A stretch of 64,000 bases of DNA from Patescibacteria group bacterium (lineage in GTDB: Bacteria > Patescibacteriota > Microgenomatia > PFEM01 > JAHIFH01). The stretch lies in NCBI GenBank assembly GCA_035529375.1, contig DATKWU010000009.1, positions 289,111 through 353,110 on the forward strand, in the 5' to 3' direction. The notes beneath the pieces were generated by a model that saw only the letters and a list, made by a program, of their open reading frames with translations, was not told the origin of the DNA and searched no databases. This document shows, piece by piece, positions 49,469-64,000 of this stretch. Each line of letters opens with the position of its first letter. Positions within the stretch are counted from its first letter, which is position 1. Position numbers and translations under genes: made by a program.

Positions 49469-49753
49469 TCCGCGGTAGCTCAATGGTAGAGCGACTGCCT
49501 GTCAATTTGGCAGCTTTTCGCTGAAAGGCGAATTGAAAAACCGGGTGAATTCAGGGAAACCTAAATCTTTTTGATATGGTAATCCTGAGCCAAGTCCGCC
49601 CAGGCGGAAAGGTGCAGAGACTAGGTGAGTACACCTTAAAGCGCCCGGCACCTAAAGCTTAAAGCTACGGTGATGAGATAGTCCACACCTTTTGGAAACA
49701 AAGGGATTTGTGTAAGCAGTTGGTTGTAGGTTCGAATCCTACCCGCGGAGCCA
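49469..49753 (+). tRNA. tRNA (Asp-GUC or Asn-GUU; exon junction ambiguous) interrupted by a ~210-nt group I intron in the anticodon loop
   Basis: 5' half TCCGCGGTAGCTCAATGGTAGAGCGACTGCCTGTCAA (acceptor, D-arm, 5' anticodon stem ACTGC, loop CTGTC...). 3' half (A)AGCAGTTGGTTGTAGGTTCGAATCCTACCCGCGGAGCCA (3' anticodon stem GCAGT, T-arm, acceptor CCGCGGA pairing perfectly with TCCGCGG, discriminator G, CCA). The two halves are separated by ~210 nt. Confidence 0.7.
49504..49715 (+). other. Group I self-splicing intron (putative) within the tRNA anticodon loop
   Basis: Contains the conserved group I core elements R (GCAGAGACTAGG, 49615-49623) and S (GATGAGATAGTCCAC, 49676-49684), whose GACTA/TAGTC segments can form P7. 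The sequence GGCAG at intron nt 4-8 is complementary to the exon anticodon-stem CTGCC (possible P1/IGS). Exact boundaries +/-3 nt. Confidence 0.55.
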
Positions 49754-51298
49754 GTTGGAACTTAATATACCAAGTTTAGCCTCATTCAAAACTTGGAGTG
49801 CCGGAGTGTATTCGACCTCCATTATTTTCTTATCTTGTACCCATATCTTTTGGAAGAAAAAGTGTAAATAAGCACGCTTGTGATCAATGTCCGAATCCTC
49901 ATAGGTTTGAACAATATTTCGAGTTAGTTTAAGTACTTCATTTATGATCGAAGTATCAATGGTATTGGTCTTATCCTGTTCCACAAGTTCTTTCTGAATG
50001 ACTAGAGCTTCTGCATCTAGTTGAGTATTATATTTTTGGAGTTGTTCGACAGGAAGTTTGTTATCAAAGTAGTCTTTTTCAATCTTTATTCTTTTTTGGT
50101 CAACTGCATCCCTTTTGTTATATAGAGCTTTTTTAGCGCGCTGAATACGATCAATACTTTCGTCATAAACACGAGTGATATTGGTTTCTACTGCTTGGAT
50201 GAATTCATCAGTAAAGGCTAGCTTATCGACCTCTTGTTTTACTTGGTCCTCAAGATTAGTGAGTAATACATATCTTGAAGGGCAACCACCACGCTTACCA
50301 GTTTGAGAGCAGTGATACATTCCAATCTTTCCATTACCAGTTTTATATTTTTCGTGATAATGCCACTCTGCAACATAACGTCTGCCACAGTCTTTGCAAA
50401 AGACAACGCCCCGAAGAAGAAAGTTGTGTTTTCTCTTGCGAAGACCATAATCGCCTTTTTCTGAGAGTATCTTTTGAACTAAATCAAAAGTCTGCTTATC
50501 AACTAGAGGTTCGTGTTTCCCCATACCTTCATGTCCTCCGTGTTTCATCCAACCCCAATAAAATGAATTCTTAAGCATATTGCCAACAATAGAGTATTGA
50601 ATCGGTTTCCCTTTTCTACCTGTTACTCCATTTTTGTGGAGGTACTGGCGAATATCATAAATTGCATAGTCACGAGTTGCATACAATTTATAAGCCTGTC
50701 GAACAAAAGGAGCTATAGCAGGATCAGGAATGACAATCTTTTTGTCGTAAGAGCCTTCAGGATTTTTATTGACAACATTTAAGTAACCCAATGGCGCCCA
50801 CGAAGGATAATATCCTGCTTTAAACTTTTCAGAAGCTGTTTGTTTGACCTTGTAGCTAGTCATACGAGGAAAGAAAGCGTTCATTACCGCCATCATTTCA
50901 TTCATGGTTCTACTTACTGGATCACCATTAATTACTCCTGAAAGAGGAACGATTTTAACTCCACATTTTTCTAGTTCGCTAACAATGAAACAGTATTCGA
51001 AAGTGTCACGAGAGAGTCGGGATATGTCTTGCACAACAAGATACGCAATATCTTTTTTGTAACATCTACTTAGTAATGCTTGGAAGCTTGGTCTGTTTAA
51101 AGTAGTACCTGAAATCCCATTATCAACGTAGCAATCCTCAGCTAGGTACCCACCTAACTCTTGAATCTTCTCTAGTGCCTTTATTTGTTGGGTTTCAATA
51201 CTAAGATTATCTACCTGATCCATTGTGGACACTCTAGCGTAGATGATGCATTTTGGTTTACTTCCGTGATCGCTATTTATATCTTGTTTTAACTGCAT
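49739..51298 (-). CDS. Large serine recombinase (resolvase-type catalytic domain + recombinase domain + zinc ribbon), integrase of the element
   Basis: N-terminal IYARVSTMDQ catalytic-Ser motif and SRLSRD. Large C-terminal domain with CKDCGRRY...C zinc ribbon and a coiled-coil. Its 3' end overlaps the left direct repeat and the tRNA 3' exon. Confidence 0.85.
   Translation of the reverse strand: MQLKQDINSDHGSKPKCIIYARVSTMDQVDNLSIETQQIKALEKIQELGGYLAEDCYVDNGISGTTLNRPSFQALLSRCYKKDIAYLVVQDISRLSRDTFEYCFIVSELEKCGVKIVPLSGVINGDPVSRTMNEMMAVMNAFFPRMTSYKVKQTASEKFKAGYYPSWAPLGYLNVVNKNPEGSYDKKIVIPDPAIAPFVRQAYKLYATRDYAIYDIRQYLHKNGVTGRKGKPIQYSIVGNMLKNSFYWGWMKHGGHEGMGKHEPLVDKQTFDLVQKILSEKGDYGLRKRKHNFLLRGVVFCKDCGRRYVAEWHYHEKYKTGNGKIGMYHCSQTGKRGGCPSRYVLLTNLEDQVKQEVDKLAFTDEFIQAVETNITRVYDESIDRIQRAKKALYNKRDAVDQKRIKIEKDYFDNKLPVEQLQKYNTQLDAEALVIQKELVEQDKTNTIDTSIINEVLKLTRNIVQTYEDSDIDHKRAYLHFFFQKIWVQDKKIMEVEYTPALQVLNEAKLGILSSNWLRG
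49748..49771. repeat. Left copy of the 24-bp direct repeat GAGCCAGTTGGAACTTAATATACC (tRNA 3' end + 18 nt); putative attL
   Basis: Exact 24/24 match to 60378-60401. The match extends (with a 1-nt indel) by AAGT. Confidence 0.6.
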
Positions 51299-51349
51299 AT
51301 GTTTTACTTACTTCTAAGTGAAATGCCCTATATCTATATGATCAAGCAT

Positions 51350-51658
51350 TTACTCACTAAAGGCACTCCGTAAGGGCTTTCTGATTCGTTCTTCCTGTAC
51401 TTGATCAATTAACAACTGACACCATTGTTGGGCAAGACTATCAATGTCGATACGGGGGGTAGTATCTTTAGAAAAAGGCAACGGGCAAGATAACTGTGTC
51501 GCTTTAGTGGGCTTGTTAACCCTTCCTTTTATCCCTCTTTTTGATTTCATAAGGGCAGGTGTACTACTTTTTTCATTTCTATTAACTTTTTTATTAGAGT
51601 CTTGAAACTCAAGGCTATTGACTCTTGAAATAGTGTTGTTTTCTAATTTTGTAGTCAT
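51350..51658 (-). CDS. Hypothetical small basic protein (element cargo)
   Basis: 102-aa ORF, K/R-rich (SKRGIKGRVNKPTKA). Confidence 0.4.
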   Translation of the reverse strand: MTTKLENNTISRVNSLEFQDSNKKVNRNEKSSTPALMKSKRGIKGRVNKPTKATQLSCPLPFSKDTTPRIDIDSLAQQWCQLLIDQVQEERIRKPLRSAFSE

Positions 51659-51689
51659 AGGTTTATAGTCAATAAATCAATACAATCTT

Positions 51690-52421
51690 TTAGTTTTCTG
51701 AGCTAATAATTAAATGTTTCTGATATTCATTCCAATCACCATCAAAAAACACATCGACAATATTTTTCTCTTGTTCATTATTTTCGATTGCTACCTTTTC
51801 AGTTACGTTTTCATCAATCCACCTCATATCATCAGGAGTCAAACCTTCATAATGACCTTCTTTATAAATCTTTTGATATTCGGAGTCGCTTCTAACATCT
51901 TGTTGAATAAGAACCATCCTATTAGAACCAATAGGAAAAGAACCTAACTCACCCTTAAAGGAACCTAAAGCTTTAGAGGGTATATTCAAGGCCAAATCCG
52001 TTACTTTTTTAGGAATTATTTTCGCTTTTTCAGGATAAAAACAGACATTTTGAAGAATATTATCGAGAGTTTGAGAAAGTTTTTCCGATTTAGCAAAGTC
52101 AGCCGCTCTGCCTCCAAATGAAACACCGTATCGTTCAGGGAATTTTATTTTGAAAACTGATCTTTTCTTATCAACTATTTCAATGAAGCTTTTATTAAGA
52201 AGTCCATTACGCCAATCATTAACAGTTTCAATACCTTTATTGAAATATTCTGCTACGACTTCGGGATAAGCGATGAATTGACCATAGTTATCGTGTTTAT
52301 GGTCAAAATCCATTGAGTCTAGGTAGTATTCAAACAATAGAAATTCTTGAGAGGTTAAGATTCTCTTTTGCAGGAGAATCCATCTGTTTCTGTGTGTTAC
52401 TCGATAACCATTTAACTTCAT
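51690..52421 (-). CDS. Hypothetical protein (element cargo)
   Basis: 243-aa ORF. No recognisable motifs. Confidence 0.45.
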   Translation of the reverse strand: MKLNGYRVTHRNRWILLQKRILTSQEFLLFEYYLDSMDFDHKHDNYGQFIAYPEVVAEYFNKGIETVNDWRNGLLNKSFIEIVDKKRSVFKIKFPERYGVSFGGRAADFAKSEKLSQTLDNILQNVCFYPEKAKIIPKKVTDLALNIPSKALGSFKGELGSFPIGSNRMVLIQQDVRSDSEYQKIYKEGHYEGLTPDDMRWIDENVTEKVAIENNEQEKNIVDVFFDGDWNEYQKHLIISSEN

Positions 52422-52485
52422 GAGAACATTCTCTCTAAAAGCAAATGGGAGTTTTATACCGATTCAGAAGCCTGTAAATTGCAGG

Positions 52486-53271
52486 TTAGCGAGTGAGAAG
52501 ATTGGAATATGTTTTTACTGCCTTGAGAACATCAAGATCAGTGGTCAATTCGTTCTCGTATTTTTTGACGTATTCATCGGCTATTTGTTGATATGTTTTT
52601 CCTTTTATCCTCTCCCAGTACCATTCACGGTATTTTCGAGTGTTAGGAGTAACATCAACTCTTGGTCTATAGTATGACAATCGCTTATCAGTTTTCATCA
52701 GTTCTTTTGCTTTGCGGAATTCTTCTTTTACTTCCTCATAAGTGGATGTTGGGGACACAAATATTGCAACTCGTTCAAATGTTTCCCATGCCCCCATTTC
52801 ACCGAAATTAACCACTTTTGCTTCCGTGGGTTTAAAGTGTTTGTCATCAACTGCACCGCAGAATATTGCTTGTTCGATAGCTTCGACAAAATAGGTTGGC
52901 CTGTTAAATTCAAAGCAGATAAAGTTACATTCAGCATCTAGCATTATTGGTATATCGTTTTTGATACTAATAAGTTCGTAGAAATTAGGAAATGACTCCT
53001 CAAGTTCGCCGATTTTAGAATACTTAGCCAAGTTAACCTCAACAGCTTCTTGAAAATGTGTGTCGAACAGATGTGAATCAAATTCTTCGTCAAAATCATT
53101 AACAGAGAATAAGTTGGGAACAAAATATGTCCTTCTTAGGTCAGGAAGTAAATCAATGAAGGCAGGCTTGTCGAACAGGAAAGCAAGCTCTTGATAGTAA
53201 ACGTCGTTGTTTGTTCTTATGTCGATTTTGAAGTCTTGAAGATAGGCTTTGTCGTTCTTTCTAATTTTCAT
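52486..53271 (-). CDS. Hypothetical protein (element cargo)
   Basis: 261-aa ORF. No recognisable motifs. Confidence 0.45.
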   Translation of the reverse strand: MKIRKNDKAYLQDFKIDIRTNNDVYYQELAFLFDKPAFIDLLPDLRRTYFVPNLFSVNDFDEEFDSHLFDTHFQEAVEVNLAKYSKIGELEESFPNFYELISIKNDIPIMLDAECNFICFEFNRPTYFVEAIEQAIFCGAVDDKHFKPTEAKVVNFGEMGAWETFERVAIFVSPTSTYEEVKEEFRKAKELMKTDKRLSYYRPRVDVTPNTRKYREWYWERIKGKTYQQIADEYVKKYENELTTDLDVLKAVKTYSNLLTR

Positions 53272-53379
53272 AATTGTCTGTTTCTATTCTACTAAAAAGA
53301 GTCATCGGTTACGATGACTCTTATAAAAATTACGAAAGATTAAAAGAGAGTGGATTATTTATTTCACAAATAGTATTGA

Positions 53380-55107
53380 TTAGTTACTAGTGTGTTGTGG
53401 GGCTCTTTTTAATAGATTGAGTAGTTCTCCTTTTTGAATTTGAGCTACTTGTTCGGGCATAAGAGTAAACGAAAATTTAGGATTATCTGATTCGGCTGCT
53501 AAAATAGCCGTACCGATTCTTGTATCATCAATATAAATACTCACAAAATAAATTCCTGGTTTTGGTATTTTAAAAATCATATCACCATCTACGGGACTGA
53601 TGACAAAACTGGAAGAAGAAACAACTGTGGCTGTGTCAACAAGAAATGACTCTCTTGTTGAAGCATTAACTAGCCTAATTTCAAGATGATGCGTTCCTAT
53701 TGGTAGCCTAAAAGCACTTGCAATATGTGCTCTGAGCGGAAGTGGATAGTTTTTCCAGTACGACACCATAAATTGATTTTCAAACTTTAGATAGGATTCT
53801 TCGTATATGGACTTTTCACAGATAGTAAAGTAAACCAGTTCAGCTTTGCCAGACTTTTCAATCACTTCGTCTACGCATTTCCTTAAATGATCCATCATTA
53901 TTTCTTGTTGTTTTTTCATAAACACATCTTTTTTATCAGGGGAGGGAACATCTTCTTTAACATGACCAAAATACATTGCACGCCTTCCTATTAATTGTTT
54001 GTCAATATAACATTCCAATATTGCTGGACCAGGTTTTTCTACGGATAAGTAAATCTTGGAAACAGTATCAATTTCTTCTGGTAAATACTCAATGTGAACA
54101 TCTTGACTATATACTTCTTTTTCTTCGAAATTTTTCAATACGAATCTTAGCTTATGATCACCAGCAGAACCCCAAAGACCAACTGCCGCAATTAACTCAA
54201 CCGAAAAAGGGAATTTATGCGAAGCAATATTCGTTAGTGGATTAAAAAATTCAATAGTTCCTGGACTAATTTTAATTCCGGTGCAAGTTAAAAAATAAGT
54301 TAGGTGCCATTTAACAGCTGATTCTCCAGGAGGCATTTCAAAATCATGAAACTGTAACCTTTTTGCAGGTTCAGTGATTAATTTTATTGGCTCAACTAGT
54401 TGAGTGGTTATATTTTTAGTTAAATCGTGTTGCGTCCAAACACCCTTTTCCATTTCAATGCTTTTAGAGTTAGGTTCTTTATCTGGGTCAATGTCAACAA
54501 ATCCATACCACAAGGGTCTTATCCCATCTGATTCGATTAAGATTGTCTGGAATAATCCCCCAACGGTATCTATTCCCTGTCTTCCTAACTCACTTCCTAG
54601 ATTAATGTAGAGCAAATCAGCCTTTTGTTTTAAAGATTGATTAGGTTTTTCAAATAGGTTTGCGTTTTTTCGAAGATAACCAGCAACGATATTACCTGAA
54701 CCAATAACTGTAAATCCTTCATTGACTTTTTGGGGAGCAAAGGATGGAAACTCAAAAGAAGATACTTCAATTTTGCCTGAATTATTAATTGTTCCAAGGA
54801 TAAAAGCTAAGGGCTCTTTTATTTTTTTATAATAGAATTTTGCTATCCTACATAGCTCTGATACCATTACGTTAGGAATATTTAACTTTGATTTTTTCTT
54901 TAGCGTTCCTCTTAGGCTATTTATCACTAACGCTGCTGTTTTAACATCACCAGCGTATCCAATTACCATTCTATTTCCTAAAGGCAATATTTTTTGTAAT
55001 TTATCCTCAAGAATGTTAGCGTTGATTCTTTTATCCACCCAAGTCGCTCGGCTATCAGAAATCATCACTGTTCCTTCTTTGAATTTGTAGGCTAAAACCA
55101 TTGTCAT
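53380..55107 (-). CDS. HslV/proteasome-beta-like Ntn-hydrolase domain fused to a ~370-aa C-terminal domain of unknown function (element cargo)
   Basis: N-terminus M-TMVLAYKFKEGTVMISDSRATW (Thr directly after the initiator Met, D-x-R/Q-AT). RMVIGYAGDVKTAALVINSL and TVIGSGNIVAGYL parallel HslV TTIVSV...AGDGQATLG, VIAGFAGGTADAFTLFE and IAIGSGGNYALSAA. Confidence 0.6.
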   Translation of the reverse strand: MTMVLAYKFKEGTVMISDSRATWVDKRINANILEDKLQKILPLGNRMVIGYAGDVKTAALVINSLRGTLKKKSKLNIPNVMVSELCRIAKFYYKKIKEPLAFILGTINNSGKIEVSSFEFPSFAPQKVNEGFTVIGSGNIVAGYLRKNANLFEKPNQSLKQKADLLYINLGSELGRQGIDTVGGLFQTILIESDGIRPLWYGFVDIDPDKEPNSKSIEMEKGVWTQHDLTKNITTQLVEPIKLITEPAKRLQFHDFEMPPGESAVKWHLTYFLTCTGIKISPGTIEFFNPLTNIASHKFPFSVELIAAVGLWGSAGDHKLRFVLKNFEEKEVYSQDVHIEYLPEEIDTVSKIYLSVEKPGPAILECYIDKQLIGRRAMYFGHVKEDVPSPDKKDVFMKKQQEIMMDHLRKCVDEVIEKSGKAELVYFTICEKSIYEESYLKFENQFMVSYWKNYPLPLRAHIASAFRLPIGTHHLEIRLVNASTRESFLVDTATVVSSSSFVISPVDGDMIFKIPKPGIYFVSIYIDDTRIGTAILAAESDNPKFSFTLMPEQVAQIQKGELLNLLKRAPQHTSN

Positions 55108-55252
55108 AACTCTCTTTTTCCTCCTCTTGTATTATATCCGAACTATGAGTTTATATACCCGAATAAATTTATTACAATACAAAAAGAAAACTAAAGAAAA
55201 TTCAACCTTTGTCGTTGTGTTATTTCCCCATTTTTGGTTTAATATAAACCAT

Positions 55253-58000
55253 ATGAGCAACATGGGAGAACCATTATCAGGAGCAACACCACTTGAAGCA
55301 ATAAAACCGCCAGTTGTTGCCACTTCTCCAGAAAATCAACCCATTAACCCACTTGCTGAACAATACCAATCTAAAGCACAAGAACTAAAGATTAAACCTG
55401 TGCAGAGTGGTGAGTGGATTGCAACTGATGGCGTTGAATATATTCAATGGGGTGATGAGAAACATCAGTTTGCTTCCAATACAGATGAACAAACTTTCCC
55501 AACCAGATTAAATCAAGTCGGAACCTATGATTCTAATAATGGCACGCTTGCTTTTGTTGATGAAAAAGGCGTAATGCATGCAGGACACTCAACGGATGCA
55601 AATTTTCAAGCATTAGAACAGGCAGGATATAGACGTGGTGGTATTTGGGTTCCATTCTCCAACGGAGAAGTGCCAGCAGATCCAGAATTAAGAAAGCAAT
55701 ATATAGAACTTAGGGAAAAGGGGAGAGAAATAAATAAAAAAGCAAATATTGAACGACACCTTCATGTTTATAGTGAAACCGCTGAGAGAAAAGGAATAAA
55801 ACCTGTTGAGGGGGGTCTGTTTATGATGGTTGATGGTATTGAATACAGACATTGGGGAAACGAAACAGGGACAATAGACACCAATACAGACGGTTATAAC
55901 ATGGCTATTCGAAGAGTTGAACAAGTGGGAACTTTCGATGGTAATAACGGAAGAATGGCTTTTGTGGATGGACAAGGAAGAATGTGGGCTGGTGCAGCTA
56001 CTAGCGAAAACTATGAAGCAATAAATAAAGCTGGTTATACAAGGGGTGGTATCTGGGTTCCCTTCTCTAATGGAGAAATGCCAACCGATAGAGCAACTTA
56101 CGAACAACTAAGGGATGTTTTAACTGGAAAACACGCAGAACAATTAAAAGCCGAAAGGGATGCTAGGGTTGAAGAAATAATTGAAGGAAGAAAAGTTTTA
56201 TTTGGTGATACTGCGATATTGCCAGATAGGAACGAACTATTTGTCAAAGTTGCAGATAGAGCAGAGCGACAATACATAAACGAAGCTGAATTAGTTAAGG
56301 AAAAGTTACAACCCAGAACTGAAAAAGATAACGCTGGTTTTGAACGAAGTATATATACAATTAACGGTGTTACCTTTTCTTTTAAAGGTCGAGAAGAATT
56401 ACCAACTTATCAAACATTAACAAGTTCAAGAACTACGCTATTGGGAGAGGCTCCGAATTGGGTTGAAGTAGAAGATTATCAAAAATATCAAGAACAATTA
56501 AGACAAACTCAAACCCAAGAAGGTGCTACACAACATTTTGTAACAAATAAAACGCTTCTAGGTGTTGTTGAATTAGCAATAACATTAGGAAGTAAAGATA
56601 GTTCACTAACACAACTTCGTGGGGAATTATATAAAGGAGTTTATAGCCAAAGAGCATTGACACTATTAGATGCTTTAGTTGATTCTAATTATGGTGATTC
56701 GATCAGATATGGTGGTAAACCAGAAAGCCAAGCTGAAGCGGTGGTTTTATTATCTTTACTTGGTGATATTCAAGCACAAACTGCTGTTGCTGAAAATGTT
56801 GAGTCGCAAAGAGAATACGAGACAAGCAAACAAGCTCATCGTGAGCGAAGAAAAATTGACAATGAACCATTAAAACCACAGGAATTGTGTGCCGTACATG
56901 CTACAAGGTATAAGCCAGAAGCTACAGAAGATGGGGATTTTTTAATTCCTACTACTTTTGATGCAACTAAAGGAAAGGTATTGCGAAATACAGTTCACAC
57001 AGCGTTAAATCACAAAGTTGCAGGTCATATGTATGGTTCTTGGGGCGATGCGGGATATGTGGTTATTTCGCCATTTGAGAAAATGATGGAAGCAAATGGA
57101 GTTCCAGCAGTTTTGAATACCGTTGATACCTATTGGGCAACTAACCCTGGCGAACCATTAGTTTTTGCTAACGGAACTCTTGTGGCTCCTGGTGGTAATG
57201 AAGTTCAAGGATTGTATCAGCAAGAAGGAAATGTTGTAAAGTTTAAATCGTCTGGTTTAGATAGACAGGATTTAATAAATCTAACTGCCTATTCTAGGCA
57301 AAATGGTTATCAAGATAGTTTTTCAAGAAGTATAGACGAAGCATTAAGCGGAGCGTTACATCCTTATGGTTCTGCTATGGAATTAGCAGATCAGTGGGAT
57401 TTTAGTACTACCCAACTAGCTCTAAATCAATTCCTTTACCATGCAGATAATAGTTATGGTCATCAACCTGCACTTCTAAATTTGTTGACAGTAGAAATTG
57501 AGGGTCAACCGGAATCAAATATCGAAACCAGACTCAAAAATTTAATTGAGCAGTCAGGGGCAATATCGGGATTAAAGCCAGAAGTTACTGATAAAGATAG
57601 TGCTGTTACTACATTTGCAAAAACTCTCGCTGATAGAATTAGGTCAACAATGTTTTCTGAATTGAATGAGTTAACGGTTAGGGAGGCAATTAGACAGAGG
57701 GGATTTGCAGTTCAACCTGGAGGAATGTGGGCTTGGGGTGATAGTTGGACGGTAACTGCAGAAACAGGTGCTTTAGGAGAAGAATTAGGAGTGCCTGTTG
57801 GAGCGCATACCAACATGGTAGACCATACGTTAACAGAAAGATTTTCTGGAGCGATTAGTCAAGCCACAGAGGGAGAACGTGGTAATGGGAAATTTAATTG
57901 GACAAAATATAATGCAAACTATGATGATTTAGTAAAGGACTTGGACCCAAAAACTCGCAGAGTTCTTTATGCTTCAGGACTTTTGACCGCTAGAGGATAA
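55253..58000 (+). CDS. Large hypothetical protein with two tandem ~125-aa repeats (element cargo; divergent from the Ntn-hydrolase gene)
   Basis: Repeat 1 GVEYIQWGDEKHQF...NNGTLAFVDEKGVMHAGHSTDANFQALEQAGYRRGGIWVPFSNGEVP. Repeat 2 GIEYRHWGNETGTI...NNGRMAFVDGQGRMWAGAATSENYEAINKAGYTRGGIWVPFSNGEMP. Start moved to ATG 55253 (MSNMGEPLSG), preceded by TTGGTT-17-TATAAA. The track ORF from 55127 would leave only 19 bp to the divergent gene. Confidence 0.55.
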   Translation: MSNMGEPLSGATPLEAIKPPVVATSPENQPINPLAEQYQSKAQELKIKPVQSGEWIATDGVEYIQWGDEKHQFASNTDEQTFPTRLNQVGTYDSNNGTLAFVDEKGVMHAGHSTDANFQALEQAGYRRGGIWVPFSNGEVPADPELRKQYIELREKGREINKKANIERHLHVYSETAERKGIKPVEGGLFMMVDGIEYRHWGNETGTIDTNTDGYNMAIRRVEQVGTFDGNNGRMAFVDGQGRMWAGAATSENYEAINKAGYTRGGIWVPFSNGEMPTDRATYEQLRDVLTGKHAEQLKAERDARVEEIIEGRKVLFGDTAILPDRNELFVKVADRAERQYINEAELVKEKLQPRTEKDNAGFERSIYTINGVTFSFKGREELPTYQTLTSSRTTLLGEAPNWVEVEDYQKYQEQLRQTQTQEGATQHFVTNKTLLGVVELAITLGSKDSSLTQLRGELYKGVYSQRALTLLDALVDSNYGDSIRYGGKPESQAEAVVLLSLLGDIQAQTAVAENVESQREYETSKQAHRERRKIDNEPLKPQELCAVHATRYKPEATEDGDFLIPTTFDATKGKVLRNTVHTALNHKVAGHMYGSWGDAGYVVISPFEKMMEANGVPAVLNTVDTYWATNPGEPLVFANGTLVAPGGNEVQGLYQQEGNVVKFKSSGLDRQDLINLTAYSRQNGYQDSFSRSIDEALSGALHPYGSAMELADQWDFSTTQLALNQFLYHADNSYGHQPALLNLLTVEIEGQPESNIETRLKNLIEQSGAISGLKPEVTDKDSAVTTFAKTLADRIRSTMFSELNELTVREAIRQRGFAVQPGGMWAWGDSWTVTAETGALGEELGVPVGAHTNMVDHTLTERFSGAISQATEGERGNGKFNWTKYNANYDDLVKDLDPKTRRVLYASGLLTARG

Positions 58001-58065
58001 CTATAGAAAAGAAAAAAGACCAATGATTAGTCGGTCTTCTTTCGAATATACCTTTTCCAAATTTC

Positions 58066-58317
58066 TCACTTTTTGGAAACTGCTTCTTTTTTAATTTTAA
58101 CCTCTTTAATTTCGTTATTCACCGTTGTTGTTTCTTGAACCTGTTTTGCTTCTAGTTTCTTTGCTTTGCGTCTTGCTAAATATTCCTTGTGTTTGGCACG
58201 ACCTTTTTCACTTTGTTGGTAGCGAAGCCTTGCCTCTTTCCCTTTTGAACTTTGAGCGTATTTTTTTTGGGCTTGTGTCCAACCTTTCTGTTTTTTGTTT
58301 TTAGTCGTTTCTTCCAT
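58066..58317 (-). CDS. Small lysine-rich basic protein (83 aa; element cargo)
   Basis: Strong SD AAGGAGGTGA 7 nt upstream of the ATG. K/R-rich (KKQKGWTQAQKKYAQSSKGKEARLRYQ...). The alternative overlapping frame 58176-58418 lacks an SD. Confidence 0.5.
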   Translation of the reverse strand: MEETTKNKKQKGWTQAQKKYAQSSKGKEARLRYQQSEKGRAKHKEYLARRKAKKLEAKQVQETTTVNNEIKEVKIKKEAVSKK

Positions 58318-58520
58318 GTTTTCGTCACCTCCTTACTTGGTCTAAATGTGTTAATATAATAATTATCAAACACCCTATAAAAGGGTTCACGGGGTAAGAC
58401 TAGGTAAGACGGGGGCAATTCTTCAAGGTTTAGTAAAAGTTCGTAGTGTTTCCTGAAAATTAGGACAATAAAAGAAAATTATGAAAATATCTTTTTATTG
58501 TTATTAATTAAGGAGGCATT

Positions 58521-59429
58521 ATGAAAAATATTTCAATATTATTTCCCAAATCGGAGTTTACGTCCGATCAACTGCAAAAATTAGGTTTCGCAGGACAAGT
58601 TTCTTTTATAGAAAGTGGTAGTGAGAGTTCACTAAAAGATTTAATTAAGCTCTCAAAAGATGCCGACATACTTGCGTTTAGCCCAGATAAAATTGGCAAG
58701 TGTGCTTCAGAATGGTTGCTCAAAATACTTGAAGCCTCACCGAAAGTAAAAGGGTTAGCTTTAAATACAACCCATGCTAACTATGTTGATATGGGTTATT
58801 GCAACGAAAGACGCATAAGAGTTTTTACAATTCTTGATGACTCTGCTGAGGCAATCGCCGAGCATGTCATATTACTTATCTTAGGCTGTGCTAAAAGATT
58901 GTTTATTAATGATCGAAGAACTTACAGGCGAAAGTACCAACCAGAACTAGGATTTGAAATCAGAGGTAAAAGCCTAGGCGTTATCGGTTCAAATTTGGAG
59001 GCGCAAAGGGTTGTGTCGCTAGCAAAAGCAATAGGAATGACAGTATATGCGACAGAACGCCTTGAGGGAGCAATTAGGAAACCATCCGTGCTTCAATCAG
59101 ACATTATTACAATTCATTTACCTGATACAGAAGAAAATAAAAAGTATTTGTCTAAAGAAAAAATTGCACTACTAAAAGATGGGGCGATTGTCATAAATCT
59201 TTCGAGCAGGGATATAGTCGATGAAAAAGCTATGGCGGAAGCATTAAAGAAAAGACTGGTTGACCAATATGCTTTTGAGGCGGAAAGCATGAAGAAATCA
59301 CCGCTTGGGGAAAGTGAATTTGCTCTAATGTTTAAGCCATTTTGTAAATTCACAAAAGAATCACTTAGGAGAAACAGGAGTCTGTGGGTCATAAATATTT
59401 CTAACTTGGCTGGGAAACCGACTTCCTAA
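58521..59429 (+). CDS. D-isomer-specific 2-hydroxyacid dehydrogenase-family protein (NAD-binding domain; possibly non-catalytic)
   Basis: GKSLGVIGSNLEAQRVVSLAKAIGMTVYATER (Rossmann), then ITIHLPDTEENKKYLSKEKIALLKDGAIVINLSSRDIVDEKAMAEAL, which matches the 2-Hacid_dh_C pattern. SD AAGGAGG. Confidence 0.55.
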   Translation: MKNISILFPKSEFTSDQLQKLGFAGQVSFIESGSESSLKDLIKLSKDADILAFSPDKIGKCASEWLLKILEASPKVKGLALNTTHANYVDMGYCNERRIRVFTILDDSAEAIAEHVILLILGCAKRLFINDRRTYRRKYQPELGFEIRGKSLGVIGSNLEAQRVVSLAKAIGMTVYATERLEGAIRKPSVLQSDIITIHLPDTEENKKYLSKEKIALLKDGAIVINLSSRDIVDEKAMAEALKKRLVDQYAFEAESMKKSPLGESEFALMFKPFCKFTKESLRRNRSLWVINISNLAGKPTS

Positions 59430-59595
59430 CCGAGTATATGCGATAGAAATCAATTGTGAGCCATTCTTATAAGAGGTGAAACAATGCGATACCTAAAACA
59501 GGTATCTTTCATTCGTTTAGCCTCAAACGCTTGTTTAATCGCATTGTACGAGGTTATCGCTATGGTAATTAGCCTGAAAGTATTAAAATATAGCT

Positions 59596-60255
59596 ATGGA
59601 CATGTTTATTAAATGGCTATCAGAAAATTACGGGTGGGTTGTAAGCCTACTGATACAAGGCTTTATCGCATATCATGTTTTCTTTCTTTCTCAGAAGTTA
59701 TCAAGTAAGGCTAGATTAGAACATAAAGAATCGATAAAGCGTAAGGCAGATGAGTTGTTGTCAGAAGTACGAAGGAAAAAACTAAATAGTGAGGTTTATT
59801 TAGTAAACATTAATAGATATTTCAAAGACTACCCATCAAACACAGAAAAAAGATTTGAAGGATATTCCCATATCAGAGCTGAAATAAAATCAACAAGATT
59901 TGATGGAATTGAGTTTTTTGCTGAACCACCCGTAGAAGTGTATAAAAAATCAAACGGAAGCCTATCTTTCAAGGGGACTAAGAAAGAAAAAGTATTTAAT
60001 GCTTATCCCGTTGGGGTTGTTCCTTATGAGTGGATTGAACATGTTGATATAAGTGGGGATGAATACGCTTATGTTCCATTATTCTATTGTTACTACAAAG
60101 GCAAAACAAACTGGAAGTTTTGGAAACGCTTCTTATTCTTTGGCTACCCCTATAAAAAGATGCTCTACTATAAATTGAGTGATGTGTATGACGAAAGAAA
60201 TGATCCTAGCGAAATGAAGTACTCGTATATCGATCAACCTATTGGGAAATTCTAA
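59596..60255 (+). CDS. Hypothetical N-terminally TM-anchored protein (element cargo)
   Basis: TM WVVSLLIQGFIAYHVFFL. Aromatic-rich C-terminus. Confidence 0.45.
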   Translation: MDMFIKWLSENYGWVVSLLIQGFIAYHVFFLSQKLSSKARLEHKESIKRKADELLSEVRRKKLNSEVYLVNINRYFKDYPSNTEKRFEGYSHIRAEIKSTRFDGIEFFAEPPVEVYKKSNGSLSFKGTKKEKVFNAYPVGVVPYEWIEHVDISGDEYAYVPLFYCYYKGKTNWKFWKRFLFFGYPYKKMLYYKLSDVYDERNDPSEMKYSYIDQPIGKF

Positions 60256-60264
60256 CTAACCGCC

Positions 60265-60382
60265 AGGCAAGGTTTCACTTTTTCTATTTCCTCTCTGATT
60301 TGAGCTACAAGCCTAAAGTCAGAGAAAGCCTTGATAATACAAGATAATTGCGTGGTTATATTAGAGGTGCGATCCTCGAGCC
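60265..60382. repeat. ~120-bp att-proximal sequence, copy A (partner at 63124-63250, ~70% identity)
   Basis: AGGCAAGGTTTCACTTT...CCTTGATAATACAAGATAATTGCGTGGTTATATTAGAGGTGCGATCCTCGAGC versus AGGCAAGGCTTCACTTT...CCTTGATAATATGGGAAAAACTCTTGGTTATATTAAGGTTTCGCCCTTCGAGC. Confidence 0.4.
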
Positions 60383-60401
60383 AGTTGGAACTTAATATAC
60401 C
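60378..60401. repeat. Right copy of the 24-bp direct repeat; putative attR
   Basis: Identical to 49748-49771. Confidence 0.6.
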
Positions 60402-60541
60402 CAAGTGCTTGTTAATACTTCAATAAAAACAAGCCTTAAATCGCCTCTAATAAAATCCCTTAGTTGTAAGGAAAAGTTGAAGCTAAACTTATAATTTTCT
60501 TTTGCTTGAGGTAAAATATAGGAAAGTGATATATTAGCGGT

Positions 60542-61003
60542 ATGAACAAAAATCTTTGGAACAAACAGACATTTTTGACTCTTGCCGGTATGTTGGCATT
60601 ATTTGCCGGACTTGCCGCCTTTTTTTATTATGAAGGCCTTGCGGGCAGGCCAATATACCTATTTGCAATAATAGCAGTGGCTGTTATCGTCGCTGCCGTT
60701 GCCGCGGTTTATTTGTACCTGTTGTCAAAGGGTAAAATCCAGCAAACAGGTCCGGATTACCGTTCTCTTTTTTTCTTGGGCCTTATGTTTTTTATCTTCG
60801 GCTCGCCAGAAAACCCTGCCTTTTATGCTATTGGCCTTGTGTTTGTTATTGCCGCTTTGGTCAACAGAAAGAAATGGAAAAAACAGCCCAAGCTAAGCGA
60901 ATTATCCCCAGCTCAAAGAAAATTCAGAATTGCCCTGATGATAGCTTTGGGGTTTTTGGTATTGGCTGGTTTTGTGGCTTGGTGGTGGTTCGATAAAATG
61001 TAA
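60542..61003 (+). CDS. Hypothetical polytopic membrane protein (4 TM)
   Basis: Four hydrophobic helices. Basic loop NRKKWKKQPK. Confidence 0.5.
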   Translation: MNKNLWNKQTFLTLAGMLALFAGLAAFFYYEGLAGRPIYLFAIIAVAVIVAAVAAVYLYLLSKGKIQQTGPDYRSLFFLGLMFFIFGSPENPAFYAIGLVFVIAALVNRKKWKKQPKLSELSPAQRKFRIALMIALGFLVLAGFVAWWWFDKM

Positions 61004-61061
61004 GTGTTGAAAATAAGTGCAAGACTAAATTTTCAATATTTGTTATTATGAACTTAACAAT

Positions 61062-61457
61062 ATGCAAAGCAGTGAATGGTATCAGCAATTAATTAGACCG
61101 TCGTGGTCTCCACCGTCTTGGCTTTTTGGTCCGGTTTGGACTTTTCTATATATTTTAATCGCTGTTTCCTTTTTTAAAGTATTTCAACTAACTTTTCAAA
61201 AAAAAGCCGCGTTTATTGTCGCACTCCCGTTTATTCTTAATCTCATCTTTAACTTTGCATTTACTCCCTTACAATTTGGATTAAGAAACAACTTTCTAGC
61301 TGCAATTGACATCCTCCTTGTTTTGGGCACTCTTGTTTGGGCAATGATTGCCATTTATCCTCATGCAAAATGGATTACTTTTATTCAAATTCCATATTTA
61401 TTGTGGGTTAGTTTTGCGACTGTTTTGCAGTTAACAATTACTTATTTAAATCGTTAA
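61062..61457 (+). CDS. TspO/MBR-family (tryptophan-rich sensory protein)-like membrane protein, short
   Basis: WYQQLIRPSWSPPSWLFGPVWTFLYILIA matches the TspO N-terminal signature. Only 131 aa. Confidence 0.55.
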   Translation: MQSSEWYQQLIRPSWSPPSWLFGPVWTFLYILIAVSFFKVFQLTFQKKAAFIVALPFILNLIFNFAFTPLQFGLRNNFLAAIDILLVLGTLVWAMIAIYPHAKWITFIQIPYLLWVSFATVLQLTITYLNR

Positions 61458-61458
61458 G

Positions 61459-61851
61459 ATGTTTATAAAAACTTATTTAATCACCCTGCCGGTATTTTTG
61501 GCAATCGACTTGGTTTGGCTGAGCCTAATCGCCAGGAAATTTTACGCCCAATACCTAGGTTATTTGATGAAGACAAATGTCAATTTTGCGGCAGCTGGCC
61601 TATTTTATTTGCTGTTTGTGGTTGGTTTGGTGATTTTCTCGGTTCTACCGGCACTAGAGAAAAATTCTTGGATTCAGGCTCTTTTTTTGGGAGCTTTACT
61701 CGGACTTGTCTCCTATGCCACCTATGATTTAACGAATTTAGCTACAATCAAAGACTGGCCGTTGTTGGTTACGATTGTAGACATAGTATGGGGAACAGTT
61801 TTGGGGGCCTCAGTTTCTCTGATTAGCTATTTTATTGCCACAAAAATATAG
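61459..61851 (+). CDS. Small polytopic membrane protein (DUF2177-like; assignment tentative)
   Basis: Four TM helices. 2-nt gap after the upstream gene. Confidence 0.4.
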   Translation: MFIKTYLITLPVFLAIDLVWLSLIARKFYAQYLGYLMKTNVNFAAAGLFYLLFVVGLVIFSVLPALEKNSWIQALFLGALLGLVSYATYDLTNLATIKDWPLLVTIVDIVWGTVLGASVSLISYFIATKI

Positions 61852-61857
61852 AAGAAA

Positions 61858-62634
61858 TTATCCTTTTTGAGGTAGGGGGATTAAAATACTAGTTTTCTTT
61901 TTATAATTCTGATACTTCTTGTTATCAGCAAATTTTTTGTCATATCTTTTTTCGAGTGGGGGAATGCCACTAACGAATAAGAGTATGAAGGTGATAAAAA
62001 ATGGGCCAATGATGGTTAACCATGACATTCCCCGGATGAAGGGTAGAACGAAAATAAATATTCCCCACCAACAAAGCATTTCCCCAAAATAATTAGGATG
62101 TCTTGAGTATTTCCACAAGCCCGTTTGAATCCACAGATTTTTATTCTTTGGCTTGTTTTTGAAGCTGAACTTTTGCCAATCAGAAATTGTTTCAATTATT
62201 AAGCCCAGAGCCCAAATTGCAACTCCTAAAATCATAATAAAATTTATTGTTTTATGTTCGGTGATACTTAATAAATAAATTGATGGCAGCATGATTGCCC
62301 AGACGACTAGGCCTTGGAAGAGCCAAAACTTTAAAAATTGGAGTGGTTTTTCTCTGATATTGTCAAAACGACTATCCTTTTTAATTTTTAAGATTCTAAT
62401 TAGGAGGTAAGAAATAAGTCTTATACCCCAAAAAATAACCATTACCGTTAGTAATATCTGGTAAAAATAGAATGTCTGGTTTTTAAGAAGGAATAGAAAA
62501 GCAAGTATAATAAAGGTCAGACCGTAGGTAAAATCAGTAAACTTGTCTGTTTTAAAAGAACTGGCTAAAACAAAAAATATGAGATTTATTCCTAGGCTGA
62601 CAAGTAAAGCTAGAAGGTAAATATTTATCATCAT
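61858..62634 (-). CDS. DUF1295/ICMT/PEMT-like polytopic membrane protein (steroid-5-alpha-reductase-like fold family)
   Basis: C-terminal WKYSRHPNYFGEMLCWWGIFIF (RHPxYxGE motif) after about 6 TM helices. Confidence 0.55.
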   Translation of the reverse strand: MMINIYLLALLVSLGINLIFFVLASSFKTDKFTDFTYGLTFIILAFLFLLKNQTFYFYQILLTVMVIFWGIRLISYLLIRILKIKKDSRFDNIREKPLQFLKFWLFQGLVVWAIMLPSIYLLSITEHKTINFIMILGVAIWALGLIIETISDWQKFSFKNKPKNKNLWIQTGLWKYSRHPNYFGEMLCWWGIFIFVLPFIRGMSWLTIIGPFFITFILLFVSGIPPLEKRYDKKFADNKKYQNYKKKTSILIPLPQKG

Positions 62635-62668
62635 GTCTTTATTATAAGTAAAATAAAGAATTATTGAT

Positions 62669-63106
62669 ATGCGATTATGGAGCCTACATCCTAAGTATTT
62701 TGATACAAAAGGTTTAGTTGCGGTCTGGCGAGAAAGTTTGCTGGCAAAAAAGGCTTTACAGGGTAAAACAAAAGGTTATACCAAGCACCCACAACTTATC
62801 CGCTTCAAAAATCACCCTTCTCCTTTAGAAGCTATTGATTGTTATTTATCTCACATATTCTTTGAGGCCAAAAAAAGAGGCTATAACTTTGAGAGAAGGA
62901 AAATTGGTAGGGTTTCTAGAAATATTAAGAAAATAAAAGTAACTTCAGGCCAAGTCGATTATGAGCTTAATCATTTAAAAAACAAGCTAAGGAAAAGAGG
63001 CTCTACCTTATGCAATAAAACAGTTAAAACTAAAAAGATTAAAGTTCACCCGTTATTTACAATCGTCATCGGTGACATTGAACCCTGGGAAAGACAAAAG
63101 CCCTGA
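62669..63106 (+). CDS. Pyrimidine-dimer DNA glycosylase-like protein (T4 endonuclease V-related family)
   Basis: N-terminus MRLWSLHPKYFDTKGLVAVWRESLLAKKALQGKTKGYTKHPQLIRF matches the family signature. Confidence 0.55.
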   Translation: MRLWSLHPKYFDTKGLVAVWRESLLAKKALQGKTKGYTKHPQLIRFKNHPSPLEAIDCYLSHIFFEAKKRGYNFERRKIGRVSRNIKKIKVTSGQVDYELNHLKNKLRKRGSTLCNKTVKTKKIKVHPLFTIVIGDIEPWERQKP

Positions 63107-63123
63107 AATGACTATTTTAGGAA

Positions 63124-63250
63124 GTTAAAGCTAGGCAAGGCTTCACTTTGGCAATCTCTTCCCTCAATTCCTGTACAAACCTGAAATCTTCAAAAACCTT
63201 GATAATATGGGAAAAACTCTTGGTTATATTAAGGTTTCGCCCTTCGAGCT
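63124..63250. repeat. ~120-bp att-proximal sequence, copy B (degenerate)
   Basis: See copy A. It ends ...CCCTTCGAGCTAGCC, a degenerate version of the attR junction ...ATCCTCGAGCCAGTTGG. Confidence 0.4.
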
Positions 63251-63304
63251 AGCCTCAGAAAGCTCCATTTATTGGATTTTTTTGGTCTGATATAATAAAA
63301 ACAT

Positions 63305-63792
63305 ATGAATACAGATTTAACTCCTGAGGAGAAAGGATTAGTAGAATACTCAAAAAAGCAGTTGTTAAATACAACAAAATCCGTCACGCAAATGGTGGTA
63401 TAGACACTCTTTATGCTTTCGTTTTATCAGATAGAGGTAACATCCACGATGGTGCGTGTTACGAGCCCAACATCGCTCAAGCCACTGTTTGTGGGGAACG
63501 AAGTGCTATTGCTAATATGGTTTTGCAGGAGTCATATAAAGCTAAAATTAAAAGTATTGTAATAGCAGACCCAGTCCCAGAAGTTCAGGAACGCGGGACA
63601 CCGCCTTGTGGGACTTGTAGACATCTTATTTGGTCTCACGGAACACCAGAAACGACAGTTATCCTTATGCAATATATTCCAGGTAAAGACGGTTGGACTT
63701 TCCCGAAGTTAGAGAAATATACGATAAAGGACTTTTACCCGCTTCCCTATGAGCCGAAGGAAAGACTTTGGGACAATTGGCAACCCAAGTAG
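63305..63792 (+). pseudogene. cdd: Cytidine deaminase (cdd) with an apparent -1 frameshift near an A6 run (pseudogene or sequencing/assembly error)
   Basis: Frame A runs ATG 63305 MNTDLTPEEKGLVEYSKKQ... to stop 63401-63403. Frame B is open 63328-63792 and carries the CDA zinc motifs CGERSAI and PCGTCRH. The frames overlap around AAAAAA at 63352-63357. The track shows only the C-terminal 91 aa (63517-63792). Confidence 0.45.
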
Positions 63793-64000
63793 CCAGAGGT
63801 TTATGTCAATACGAATGCTGGTTTGCTTTGGTTAATTCCGAAATTTTCAAACATAATTTTGATGTCATTTAGGGTAATATCAAACTCAATATTTCTGTTG
63901 CAGAATAAGTCCTTTAGGGGGAGCCAGGAATAGAAAAGCCCAATTTAATGGGCTTTTCTGATTTGGTAAAATAGGAGTATGGGAAAGGAAAATGATATTT

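Follow-up and report, generated by a model that had tools for sequence, protein, structure and literature searches.

A 120-bp unit repeated beside a tRNA-Asn gene is the detached 3' end of a large serine recombinase gene, probably split by its own attachment site

The 64,000-nucleotide stretch analyzed here (the window) comes from a Patescibacteria group bacterium (assembly GCA_035529375.1, contig DATKWU010000009.1, positions 289,111 to 353,110) and contains a 10.6-kb element, E1, integrated at a tRNA-Asn gene. A unit of ~120 bp at the right end of E1 recurs further downstream. Our analysis identified this unit as minus-strand coding sequence; it is the tail, as we call the final 41-42 codons, of a gene for a large serine recombinase (LSR). 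We consider it highly probable that this gene is split by the attachment site of its own element (attP), and that the second copy and a third tail located further out are leftovers of earlier insertions at the same tRNA gene. The mechanism, in which a serine recombinase gene is split by its own attachment (att) site and leaves coding-tail fossils, is more unusual than a preliminary description of the region had supposed; that description did not recognize the unit as a displaced recombinase 3' end and hence the att site inside the gene.

The repeated unit is coding

Gapless alignment of positions 60262-60384 with 63130-63252 (offset 2868) gave 85 matches over 123 positions (69%), in agreement with the ~70% recurrence reported in the preliminary description. 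When copy 1 was used as a blastn query against the whole window, copy 2 was recovered with an E-value of 2.2e-9; the sole other significant match was a 24-bp repeat at 49748-49771, and none of the rest fell below E 0.02. The similarity was stronger at the protein level, since tblastn on the minus strand aligned the two copies with an E-value of 2e-13 and 26 identical residues out of 43. The corresponding frame is the only one open in both copies, with stops 3 nt apart, and translates as WLEDRTSNITTQLSCIIKAFSDFRLVAQIREEIEKVKPCLAVS followed by a stop in copy 1 and as LEGRNLNITKSFSHIIKVFEDFRFVQELREEIAKVKPCLALTS enclosed by two stops in copy 2. The differences between the copies number 9, 12, and 21 at codon positions 1, 2, and 3, the dN/dS of tail 2 versus tail 1 is 0.27, and the mean entropy over 48 tails is 0.65, 0.48, and 1.06 at the same three positions. 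With differences that track codon positions in this way, the unit behaves as a protein-coding sequence.

The preliminary description had offered as an alternative that the unit is a small structured RNA or terminator found downstream of two unrelated genes. Both copies do lie just downstream of convergent genes, and the plus strand of copy 1 folded slightly better than shuffled sequences (z -2.0, with 8 of 200 shuffles as good; -0.4 on the minus strand). However, copy 2 folded worse than shuffles on both strands (+0.8 and +1.3), the predicted structures of the two copies differed, and a scan of 60100-64000 on both strands with Rfam covariance models gave no match at E<=1. With no shared fold or Rfam family, a single frame open in both copies, codon-dependent variation in the 48 tails, and the same sequence forming part of full-length recombinases, we rejected this explanation as extremely improbable.

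The recombinase gene is split at a direct repeat

The features of the tRNA gene and of E1 on which the argument relies are as follows.

49469-49753, plus strand: tRNA-Asn(GTT) gene with a group I intron (~49503-49712), the integration target; its final bases ...GGA GCCA would hold the crossover
49748-49771, no strand: left junction (attL) and left copy of the repeat, with the candidate crossover GA and the 22-bp right half-site R, GCCAGTTGGAACTTAATATACC
49739-51298, minus strand: LSR body of 519 amino acids (aa), the integrated "short" form, ending in KLGILSSNWLRG and a stop
60252-60377, minus strand: tail 1 (copy 1), 41 codons plus stop, EDRTSNITTQLSCIIKAFSDFRLVAQIREEIEKVKPCLAVS, in frame with the body across the repeat
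60354-60401, no strand: junction J12, attP-like, ~48 bp, made of a P arm GGTTATATTAGAGGTGCGATCCTC, GA, and R

E1 is bounded by a perfect 24-bp direct repeat, GAGCCAGTTGGAACTTAATATACC, whose copies at 49748-49771 and 60378-60401 are 10,630 bp apart, the left one overlapping the last bases of the tRNA-Asn gene (...GGAGCCA). The minus strand of R specifies the recombinase residues G-I-L-S-S-N-W, and the direct repeat accounts for the presence of G-I-L-S-S-N-W-L codons in two places, at the 3' end of the body and next to copy 1 on its upstream side. The last codons of the body are the antisense of the tRNA acceptor stem, giving the C-terminus ...NWLRG, and joining the body to tail 1 at the repeat yields a single 558-aa reading frame. 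The body matched the Pfam families Resolvase (PF00239, E 3e-26, residues 18-162), Recombinase (PF07508, 2.5e-15), and Zn_ribbon_recom (PF13408, 2.5e-9), with zinc-ribbon Cys columns that are invariant in 84 homologs; the enzyme is a member of the LSRs.

The joined 558-aa protein was used as the query of a homolog search, which returned ~2,000 relatives with lengths falling into two groups (in what follows, L### labels denote related loci or contigs and P#### labels homologous recombinase proteins). The long forms carry the same tail in one chain (P0020, ending in ...ILSANWLENRNTNITTELSRIIKVFEDFRLVAQIREQIENLRPALIATV, P0021, P0005, P0012, and P0040). The short forms, which are most of the relatives, end a few codons past WL or enter the antisense of a tRNA (...WLPRVDSNHEP, ...WLRRQDSNLRP). 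The closest relatives all come from candidate phyla radiation (CPR) genomes or from metagenomes. Contig L149 contains a complete 14-kb relative with the order tRNA end, GAGCCA, R, recombinase gene, then at the other end tail, GAGCCA, and an unrelated flank; its repeat is only 6 bp long, the distal GAGCCA being joined to a different, A-rich flank (ATAATTAAAAAAGCC). As the frames of body and tail join at the repeat, the homologs are contiguous, and L149 has the same layout, the att site lies inside the recombinase gene. On insertion, the body is cut off from its final 41-42 codons, and the ~120-bp unit is the detached tail.

The tRNA-Asn target and the attachment site

A tRNA gene at the left repeat had been assumed in the preliminary description, and one indeed exists there. 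ARAGORN called no tRNA at this position of the window because a group I intron (Rfam RF00028, Intron_gpI; 49493-49705, 99 bits) interrupts the anticodon loop. Joining the exons at 49502/49713 gave a 75-nt tRNA-Asn(GTT), and ARAGORN called Asn for that junction only. A tRNA-Asp(GTC), obtained by shifting the splice sites by one base, was rejected, as the splice-site signature (a U before the 5' splice site and a G as the last intron base) is found only at the Asn junction. The 3' half of the tRNA matches the intron-less tRNA-Asn genes of L087 and L045; the tRNA-Asn gene of L007 also has an intron. Just upstream of the tRNA, at 48727-49449, lies a 240-aa open reading frame (ORF) that may encode a homing endonuclease; it shows weak helix-turn-helix matches, contains a LAGLIDADG-like stretch (GIALYLGDGYK), and has homologs in L019 and L039.

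At J12, GGTTATATTA and TAATATACC, the outer motifs, make up an inverted repeat whose center is at the left edge of the 24-bp repeat. With the sequence GGTTATATTA...CTC GA GCC...TAATATACC, the site fits the layout of an LSR attP, ~50 bp with inverted-repeat arms and a central dinucleotide. Its P arm consists of tail codons 1-8. Among the 48 tails, the outer arm motif (codons 6-8, AAT ATA ACC) hardly varies at any codon position, third positions included, so that this stretch is under constraint as protein and as a putative binding site alike. Because the base directly left of the 24-bp repeat differs between its two junctions, the crossover falls within the repeat, where, judging from the sequence, the GA is the best candidate. 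From there, a GGTT motif starts at 19 bp in the tRNA arm (T arm, GGTTCGAAT) and at 24 bp in the tail arm. These distances match the attB/attP shift of the Listeria LI integrase, in which the zinc-ribbon motif is 5 bp nearer the center in attB, the target site, than in attP (PMC3783163).

Older blocks downstream of E1

Outside E1, two further blocks and their junctions were delineated.

60402-63116, no strand: block E2, without a recombinase, with five intact ORFs assigned by Pfam (153-aa membrane protein, TspO, DUF2177, DUF1295, pyrimidine-dimer DNA glycosylase)
63117-63245, minus strand: tail 2 (copy 2), 42 codons plus stop, EGRNLNITKSFSHIIKVFEDFRFVQELREEIAKVKPCLALTS, subtype T1b, without a recombinase body
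63222-63290, no strand: junction J23, attR-like, with a P arm GGTTATATTAAGGTTTCGCCCTTC, GA, GCTAG, and a degenerate terminator-like flank (hairpin and T run)
63305-63792, plus strand: cytidine-deaminase-like gene, frameshifted near 63390, cargo of E3, presumably the oldest block
63801-63926, minus strand: tail 3, type T2, WLPLKDLFCNRNIEFDITLNDIKIMFENFGINQSKPAFVLT and a stop (PLKDLF...), without a recombinase body, found by tblastn with the T2 tail of P0017 (E 4e-8)
63921-63962, no strand: outermost junction, with an intact core GA GCCA, GGAATAG, and a hairpin AAAAGCCCAATTTAATGGGCTTTT

The order in the window is tRNA-Asn, E1 (body, 10 kb of cargo, tail 1), E2 (five genes, tail 2), E3 (deaminase pseudogene, tail 3), and the hairpin. 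The accessory-type genes that the preliminary description had placed at 60.4-63.3 kb were recovered as the five ORFs of E2, the 2.9-kb block that copy 2 closes. The compositional analysis it had proposed for this segment gave a G+C content of 0.33-0.39 over 60.4-63.1 kb, as low as in the island, versus 0.40-0.45 in the core genes at 40-48 kb. The decayed junction that it had noticed at the second copy is also real. The letters ...CTTC GA GCTAGCC are found in place of the intact ...CCTC GA GCCAGTTGG of copy 1, and the change of the core from CCA to CTA (GAGCTAG for GAGCCAG) turns the Trp codon into a TAG stop.

One could imagine that the right end of the 10.6-kb element was duplicated locally, for example through slippage or unequal crossing-over, and that copy 2 then diverged in place without any second element, as the two copies are close together and share strand and register. 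However, at the DNA level, tail 2 is 94% identical to a tail in L056, 92% to one in L057, and 90% to one in L058, with those of L141 and L159 also within 90-94%, but only 69% identical to copy 1. Its subtype-specific residues (NITKSFSHIIKVFEDFRFVQEL) are common to L045, L056, L057, and L058, its junction flank (AAAAAGCCC...GGGCTTTCTGAAGCTAGCTC) is of a type that also precedes tails in the arrays of L058, L018, L045, and L057, and it is followed by a third tail of an unrelated type. Because such close relatives exist elsewhere, copy 2 comes from another element and not from its neighbor, and a local duplication is very improbable.

The history of E2 as a block of its own can be followed in other genomes. 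Both ends of E2 (60377-60525 at 83% and the tail at 84%) recur in the closely related L045, whose RpoD is 96% identical, around ~1 kb of other cargo and among other neighbors, with the homology stopping at the core. The genes for the E2 glycosylase (76%) and TspO (57%) are also neighbors in L057, where they are found downstream of rpoD near the tail array of that locus. The distinct tail subtype, the attR-like junction, the low G+C content, the ends shared with L045, and the third tail all agree with the earlier proposal of an older insertion at the same att site, the 10.6-kb element being the newer arrival.

The T2 tail type (WLPLKDLFCNHKLEFD...) is contiguous with a recombinase body in P0017, P0019, P0043, P0050, and P0052, and the data support tail 3 as the mark of an additional, still earlier event. 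An intact-looking copy of the E3 deaminase gene, 84% identical, was found in L016 directly beside a T1 tail, and the dCMP_cyt_deam_1 gene of L004 is 35% identical to it. B-type spacing would fit the flank of the outermost junction at 63921, and 63921-63962 probably represents the flank (B') and terminator that the tRNA-Asn gene had originally. The flanks at 63248-63300 and 63923-63980 are alike, both with a terminator-like hairpin followed by TCTGAT...ATG, and the same type precedes tails in L018, L045, L057, and L058, which suggests that whole junctions, including the original tRNA flank, travel with moving composite blocks.

Tail arrays in related genomes

Scanning the tail alignment against one genome per species gave 50 non-redundant loci, which belong to Microgenomates-type CPR bacteria according to the synteny dnaG-rpoD-tRNA-Asn and most record titles. 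Many records in a group of loci (L026, L029, L035, L040, L043, L045, L047, L055, L057, L058, L012, and L018) are titled Gammaproteobacteria, Nevskiaceae, Bathyarchaeia, or Woesearchaeota despite the CPR synteny; the titles or the binning of these metagenome-assembled genomes are probably wrong. The 50 loci hold 89 tails of three types, 85 of them orphans and 4 fused to a recombinase body. Within any one locus all tails are on one strand, with a median spacing of 2 kb, the largest arrays having six tails (L016) or five (L018 and L058), and the nearest tail lies 0.4-8 kb from tRNA-Asn wherever that tRNA is in range. In metagenomes the unit is present at >100 loci. The preliminary description had also considered a generic repeat family scattered over unrelated loci, and this does not hold because the mapped units always lie in a same-strand tail array or beside a core site, with tRNA-Asn adjacent wherever it is in reach. 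A third-position bias among the orphan tails was discarded as a sign of present function, being also expected from divergence inside formerly active genes.

Several loci show how bodies and tails combine. In L003 and L042, a full element sits behind a decayed one, and its recombinase reads into the tail of the neighbor to give a fused long form. In L004 (11540-11690), L007 (11530-11720), and L053, the nine bases coding for N-W-L, and with them the att core, are deleted in frame, making the fusion of body and tail permanent, and a separate copy of R is found just past the stop codon, beside tRNA-Asn. In many genomes (for example L004, L007, L014, L022, L048, and L055), R follows tRNA-Asn without an adjacent recombinase gene.

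A metagenome scan for the core followed by R, which required both to be intact and to which junctions without R were invisible, returned >119 stretches. Their left neighbor is tRNA-Asn, a tail of any of the three types, or other sequence, and a recombinase gene is rarely the right neighbor. Among 139 unique core+R sites, the recombinase remnant after R is <8 nt at 82, 8-39 nt at 45, and >=40 nt at 12. In the set collected by tails alone, R is recognizable in ~15 of the 85 orphan tails. The triplet preceding the Leu codon in T1b-like tails is TGG in 4, TAG in 3, TTG in 3, and another in 4, copy 2 being among the tails with a mutated Trp codon. In L099 (1-1998), L064 (1800-3300), L073, and L089, units of 0.5-0.8 kb with one gene apiece follow each other in rows, and every unit has its tail, core, and R intact. 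L099 and L064 have one unit in common, which adjoins the tRNA in the former and is preceded by another unit in the latter; the two copies are homologous precisely from one core to the next, and the shared gene encodes 84-88 aa (MSLQQEGEQ...).

Two smaller features of these sites were noted. Where R stands without a recombinase gene (60252-60404 of the window, minus strand; L099 413-571), the next triplet is often CAA, that is TTG on the coding strand, which opens an ORF of 50-52 aa (M-GILSxNWL plus the tail); over the 139 sites AAG (46) and then CAA (35) are the commonest triplets after R. Insertions of 10-25 codons occur in tails at about the same position, after ...QL(S/A)x(I), in L013 (4369), L035 (10007), L036 (10007), and L064 (3034-3270), and in L064 three short insertions are found within one tail.

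Proposed mechanism and possible role of the tail

In the mechanism that we propose, the free circular element would carry the whole recombinase gene (558 aa) with the ~48-bp attP inside its reading frame. The recombinase would cross attP with the 3' end of tRNA-Asn(GTT), between GGA and GCCA, the element supplying these last four bases of the tRNA. After insertion, the body would stay by the tRNA and stop two codons later (...NWLRG), and the tail would end up at the far end, 10.6 kb away. Copy 1 would be the tail of the present, intact E1 (49748-60377), copy 2 that of an earlier T1b element or cassette at the same tRNA, pushed outward when E1 arrived, and tail 3 the trace of a still earlier event, abutting the probable original terminator. 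Excision of E1 would be expected to give the circle junction ...GGTGCGATCCTCGAGCCAGTTGGAACTTAATATACCAAGTTTAGCCTC and the emptied site ...GAATCCTACCCGCGGAGCCAGTTGGAACTTAATATACCCAAGTGCTTG.

An AlphaFold2 model of the long form P0020, built with 84 sequences, was confident for the body and placed the split site just past the last zinc-ribbon hairpin. Two long helices (367-414 and 420-463; pLDDT, the per-residue confidence score, ~90) between the zinc-ribbon strands are predicted to form a coiled-coil insertion. According to this model, the tail lies beyond all canonical LSR domains, so the short form would keep every one of them and the split need not inactivate the enzyme. Loss of the tail may change the regulation or stability of the enzyme rather than abolish catalysis. 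By analogy with other systems, the tail may tune stability or directionality, the enzyme differing between the free and integrated states; a role as a degron, comparable to the tag of mycobacteriophage BPs, is a guess. The in-frame fusion kept by the forms that lack N-W-L suggests that the tail is worth keeping.

Several observations do not sit easily with this mechanism. The sequence to the right of E1 (60380-60401) is identical over 22 bp to the right arm R of E1 itself and is of P type. E1 appears to have been inserted beside an attL-like relic and not into a B-type half-site, whereas canonical LSRs do not recombine attP with attL (PMC3783163). The core+R metagenome scan contained no excised circle or empty site of the exact strain, only related sites such as L087, in which the same tRNA is joined to R and another cassette, and L045, with the ends of E2; we infer the movement of E1. 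In the P0020 model, the tail has low confidence (pLDDT 38-54), with two short helices and no docking site. Finally, no remnant of a recombinase body is seen in the older blocks, a state that is hard to account for by simple decay.

Relics or cassettes

The recombinase-less blocks can be read in two ways. They could be decayed relics that lost the recombinase by deletion, in which case the scan that required R would see only the sites that kept it. They could also be working cassettes, with R on one side and the tail on the other, inserted and excised in trans at the tRNA by a recombinase of the E1 type to form an integron-like array in which copy 2 is the recombination site of a live cassette. 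The second reading is favored by the distribution of remnants, as random deletion in a 1.6-kb gene should leave long ones and not the excess below 8 nt found at the 139 core+R sites. The arrays of single-gene units with intact tail, core, and R, the unit shared core to core by L099 and L064, the conservation of the E2 ends around different cargo in L045, and the R-bearing site adjoining E1 itself point the same way. However, the scan was blind to junctions without core+R, graded remnants of 8-39 nt do exist, and in the tail-collected set only ~15 of 85 orphans have retained R, with frequent mutation of the core Trp codon, copy 2 included. Canonical LSRs also do not recombine two sites that share P-type arms (PMC3783163), yet E1 appears to have used a target whose right arm is of P type, the alternative being that homologous recombination brought it into a resident recombinase gene, since deleted. 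Weighing both sides, we regard working cassettes as possible but doubtful.

If pursued further, the same observations would outline a tRNA-Asn cassette system of Microgenomates run by a serine recombinase, a proposal that we put forward only tentatively. The tRNA end with R would be a permanent entry site, regenerated at each insertion, and each cassette would end in a ~150-bp tail-core-R site derived from the 3' end of the recombinase gene. That gene would be a cassette as well, taking its C-terminus from the tRNA antisense when next to the tRNA and from the tail of a neighbor when further out. If true, this would be an integron-like gene-capture device based on another enzyme family, in a lineage with very small genomes, and the first recombinase outside archaea to split its own gene.

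Comparison with known systems

The split of the recombinase gene by its own attP, which remains our preferred explanation, has partial counterparts in several known systems. The recombinase shares with phage-type LSRs (Listeria A118/LI, phiC31, Bxb1, and SPbeta SprA) the resolvase domain, the recombinase domain, and the zinc ribbon with a long helical insertion, as well as a pseudo-palindromic attP of ~48 bp and, on the tRNA side, a target arm with its outer motif 5 bp nearer the center, as for the LI integrase (PMC3783163). It differs in having attP within the recombinase frame, so that the final 42 residues are exchanged on insertion, in targeting the 3' end of a tRNA, and in the P-type right arm of the site where E1 went in, a kind of pairing that canonical enzymes refuse; no directionality factor was identified here.

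Archaeal SSV-type integrases have their att site in the integrase gene and target tRNA genes, and a 2021 review describes them as exclusive to archaea (PMC8371274). These "suicidal" integrases (SSV1, SSV2, pTN3, and pT26-2) resemble our case in the site within their own gene, the tRNA target, and the splitting of the gene, but they are archaeal tyrosine recombinases whose two fragments are possibly inactive (PMC8371274), whereas here the domains are those of a serine recombinase, the hosts are CPR-type bacteria, and only a 42-residue extension is removed. Our case places a bacterial, serine-family enzyme beside the archaea-only tyrosine self-splitters of that review. In mycobacteriophage BPs, integration removes a C-terminal ssrA-like degradation tag of 33 residues from the repressor (PMC4557955). 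BPs and Brujita share with E1 an attP inside a gene and an integrated protein that is shorter and reports the integration state, but their split gene encodes the repressor and their integrase is a tyrosine recombinase (PMC4557955), whereas here the recombinase itself is split.

The piling up of blocks is reminiscent of other mobile elements. The staphylococcal cassette chromosome (SCC) and pseudo-SCC elements at rlmH (orfX) also use serine recombinases (Ccr) and the 3' end of a conserved gene, pile up in tandem, and include recombinase-less blocks (PMC6243372). However, their target and recombinases are others, their att site is not inside the ccr genes, and no coding tail accompanies each block, whereas E1 has a single recombinase gene and targets tRNA-Asn. 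Tycheposons of Prochlorococcus likewise integrate repeatedly at one tRNA, push older elements outward, and leave degenerate remnants and partial tRNA repeats (10.1101/2020.12.28.424599), but most of them depend on tyrosine recombinases and leave partial tRNAs and integrase fragments as relics (10.1101/2020.12.28.424599), whereas here the relics are tails and recombinase fragments are nearly absent. Integrons, with their attI site and attC arrays, have one-strand arrays of short, often single-gene units, a site of <=~150 bp, and a fixed entry point. They rely on a tyrosine recombinase encoded outside the array and on folded single-stranded attC, whereas here the enzyme is a serine recombinase, the tails have no conserved fold, and the mobility of the units is putative; only the array layout is alike. 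Full-text literature searches turned up no account of a serine recombinase whose own gene contains attP, nor any of tRNA-Asn arrays in CPR.

The conserved 34-residue motif of the tail, on a fixed strand beside tRNA-Asn, offers a marker of past integrations in CPR genomes, where mobile elements are poorly charted. As the split removes a C-terminal extension only, there are two natural forms of the enzyme that report the free or integrated state, which makes a possible link between C-terminal extensions and the directionality or stability of serine integrases directly testable. LSRs are genome-engineering tools, and an enzyme that accepts a target carrying its own right arm and regenerates a usable site would be of practical interest if confirmed. 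The cargo of the arrays shows accessory functions moving between reduced genomes (TspO, pyrimidine-dimer glycosylase, cytidine deaminase, and 2-hydroxyacid dehydrogenase, with restriction and Argonaute genes in relatives).

Nature and cargo of E1 and its relatives

A phage origin of E1 was rejected, as a Pfam scan of E1 found no phage structural genes and a scan of IMG/VR with the tail alignment found no tail. E1 is more likely a plasmid-like integrative element than a phage, and a relative in L003 carries a Prim-Pol gene. The cargo of E1 includes, at 53380-55107, a 575-aa protein with an N-terminal proteasome-subunit-like domain (Pfam E 8e-6), unusual on a mobile element, and a weak DUF6941 match. 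A 957-aa protein encoded at 55127-58000 has an internal repeat of ~408 nt (55600-55681 and 56008-56089, 76% identity over the 82-nt core) and matched no Pfam family above threshold. Among relatives, the cargo in L004 (2977-5626) comprises a PvuII-like restriction system, and that in L007 (1700-3853) genes for a Piwi-domain (Argonaute-like) protein, DpnII/MboI, and a methyltransferase.

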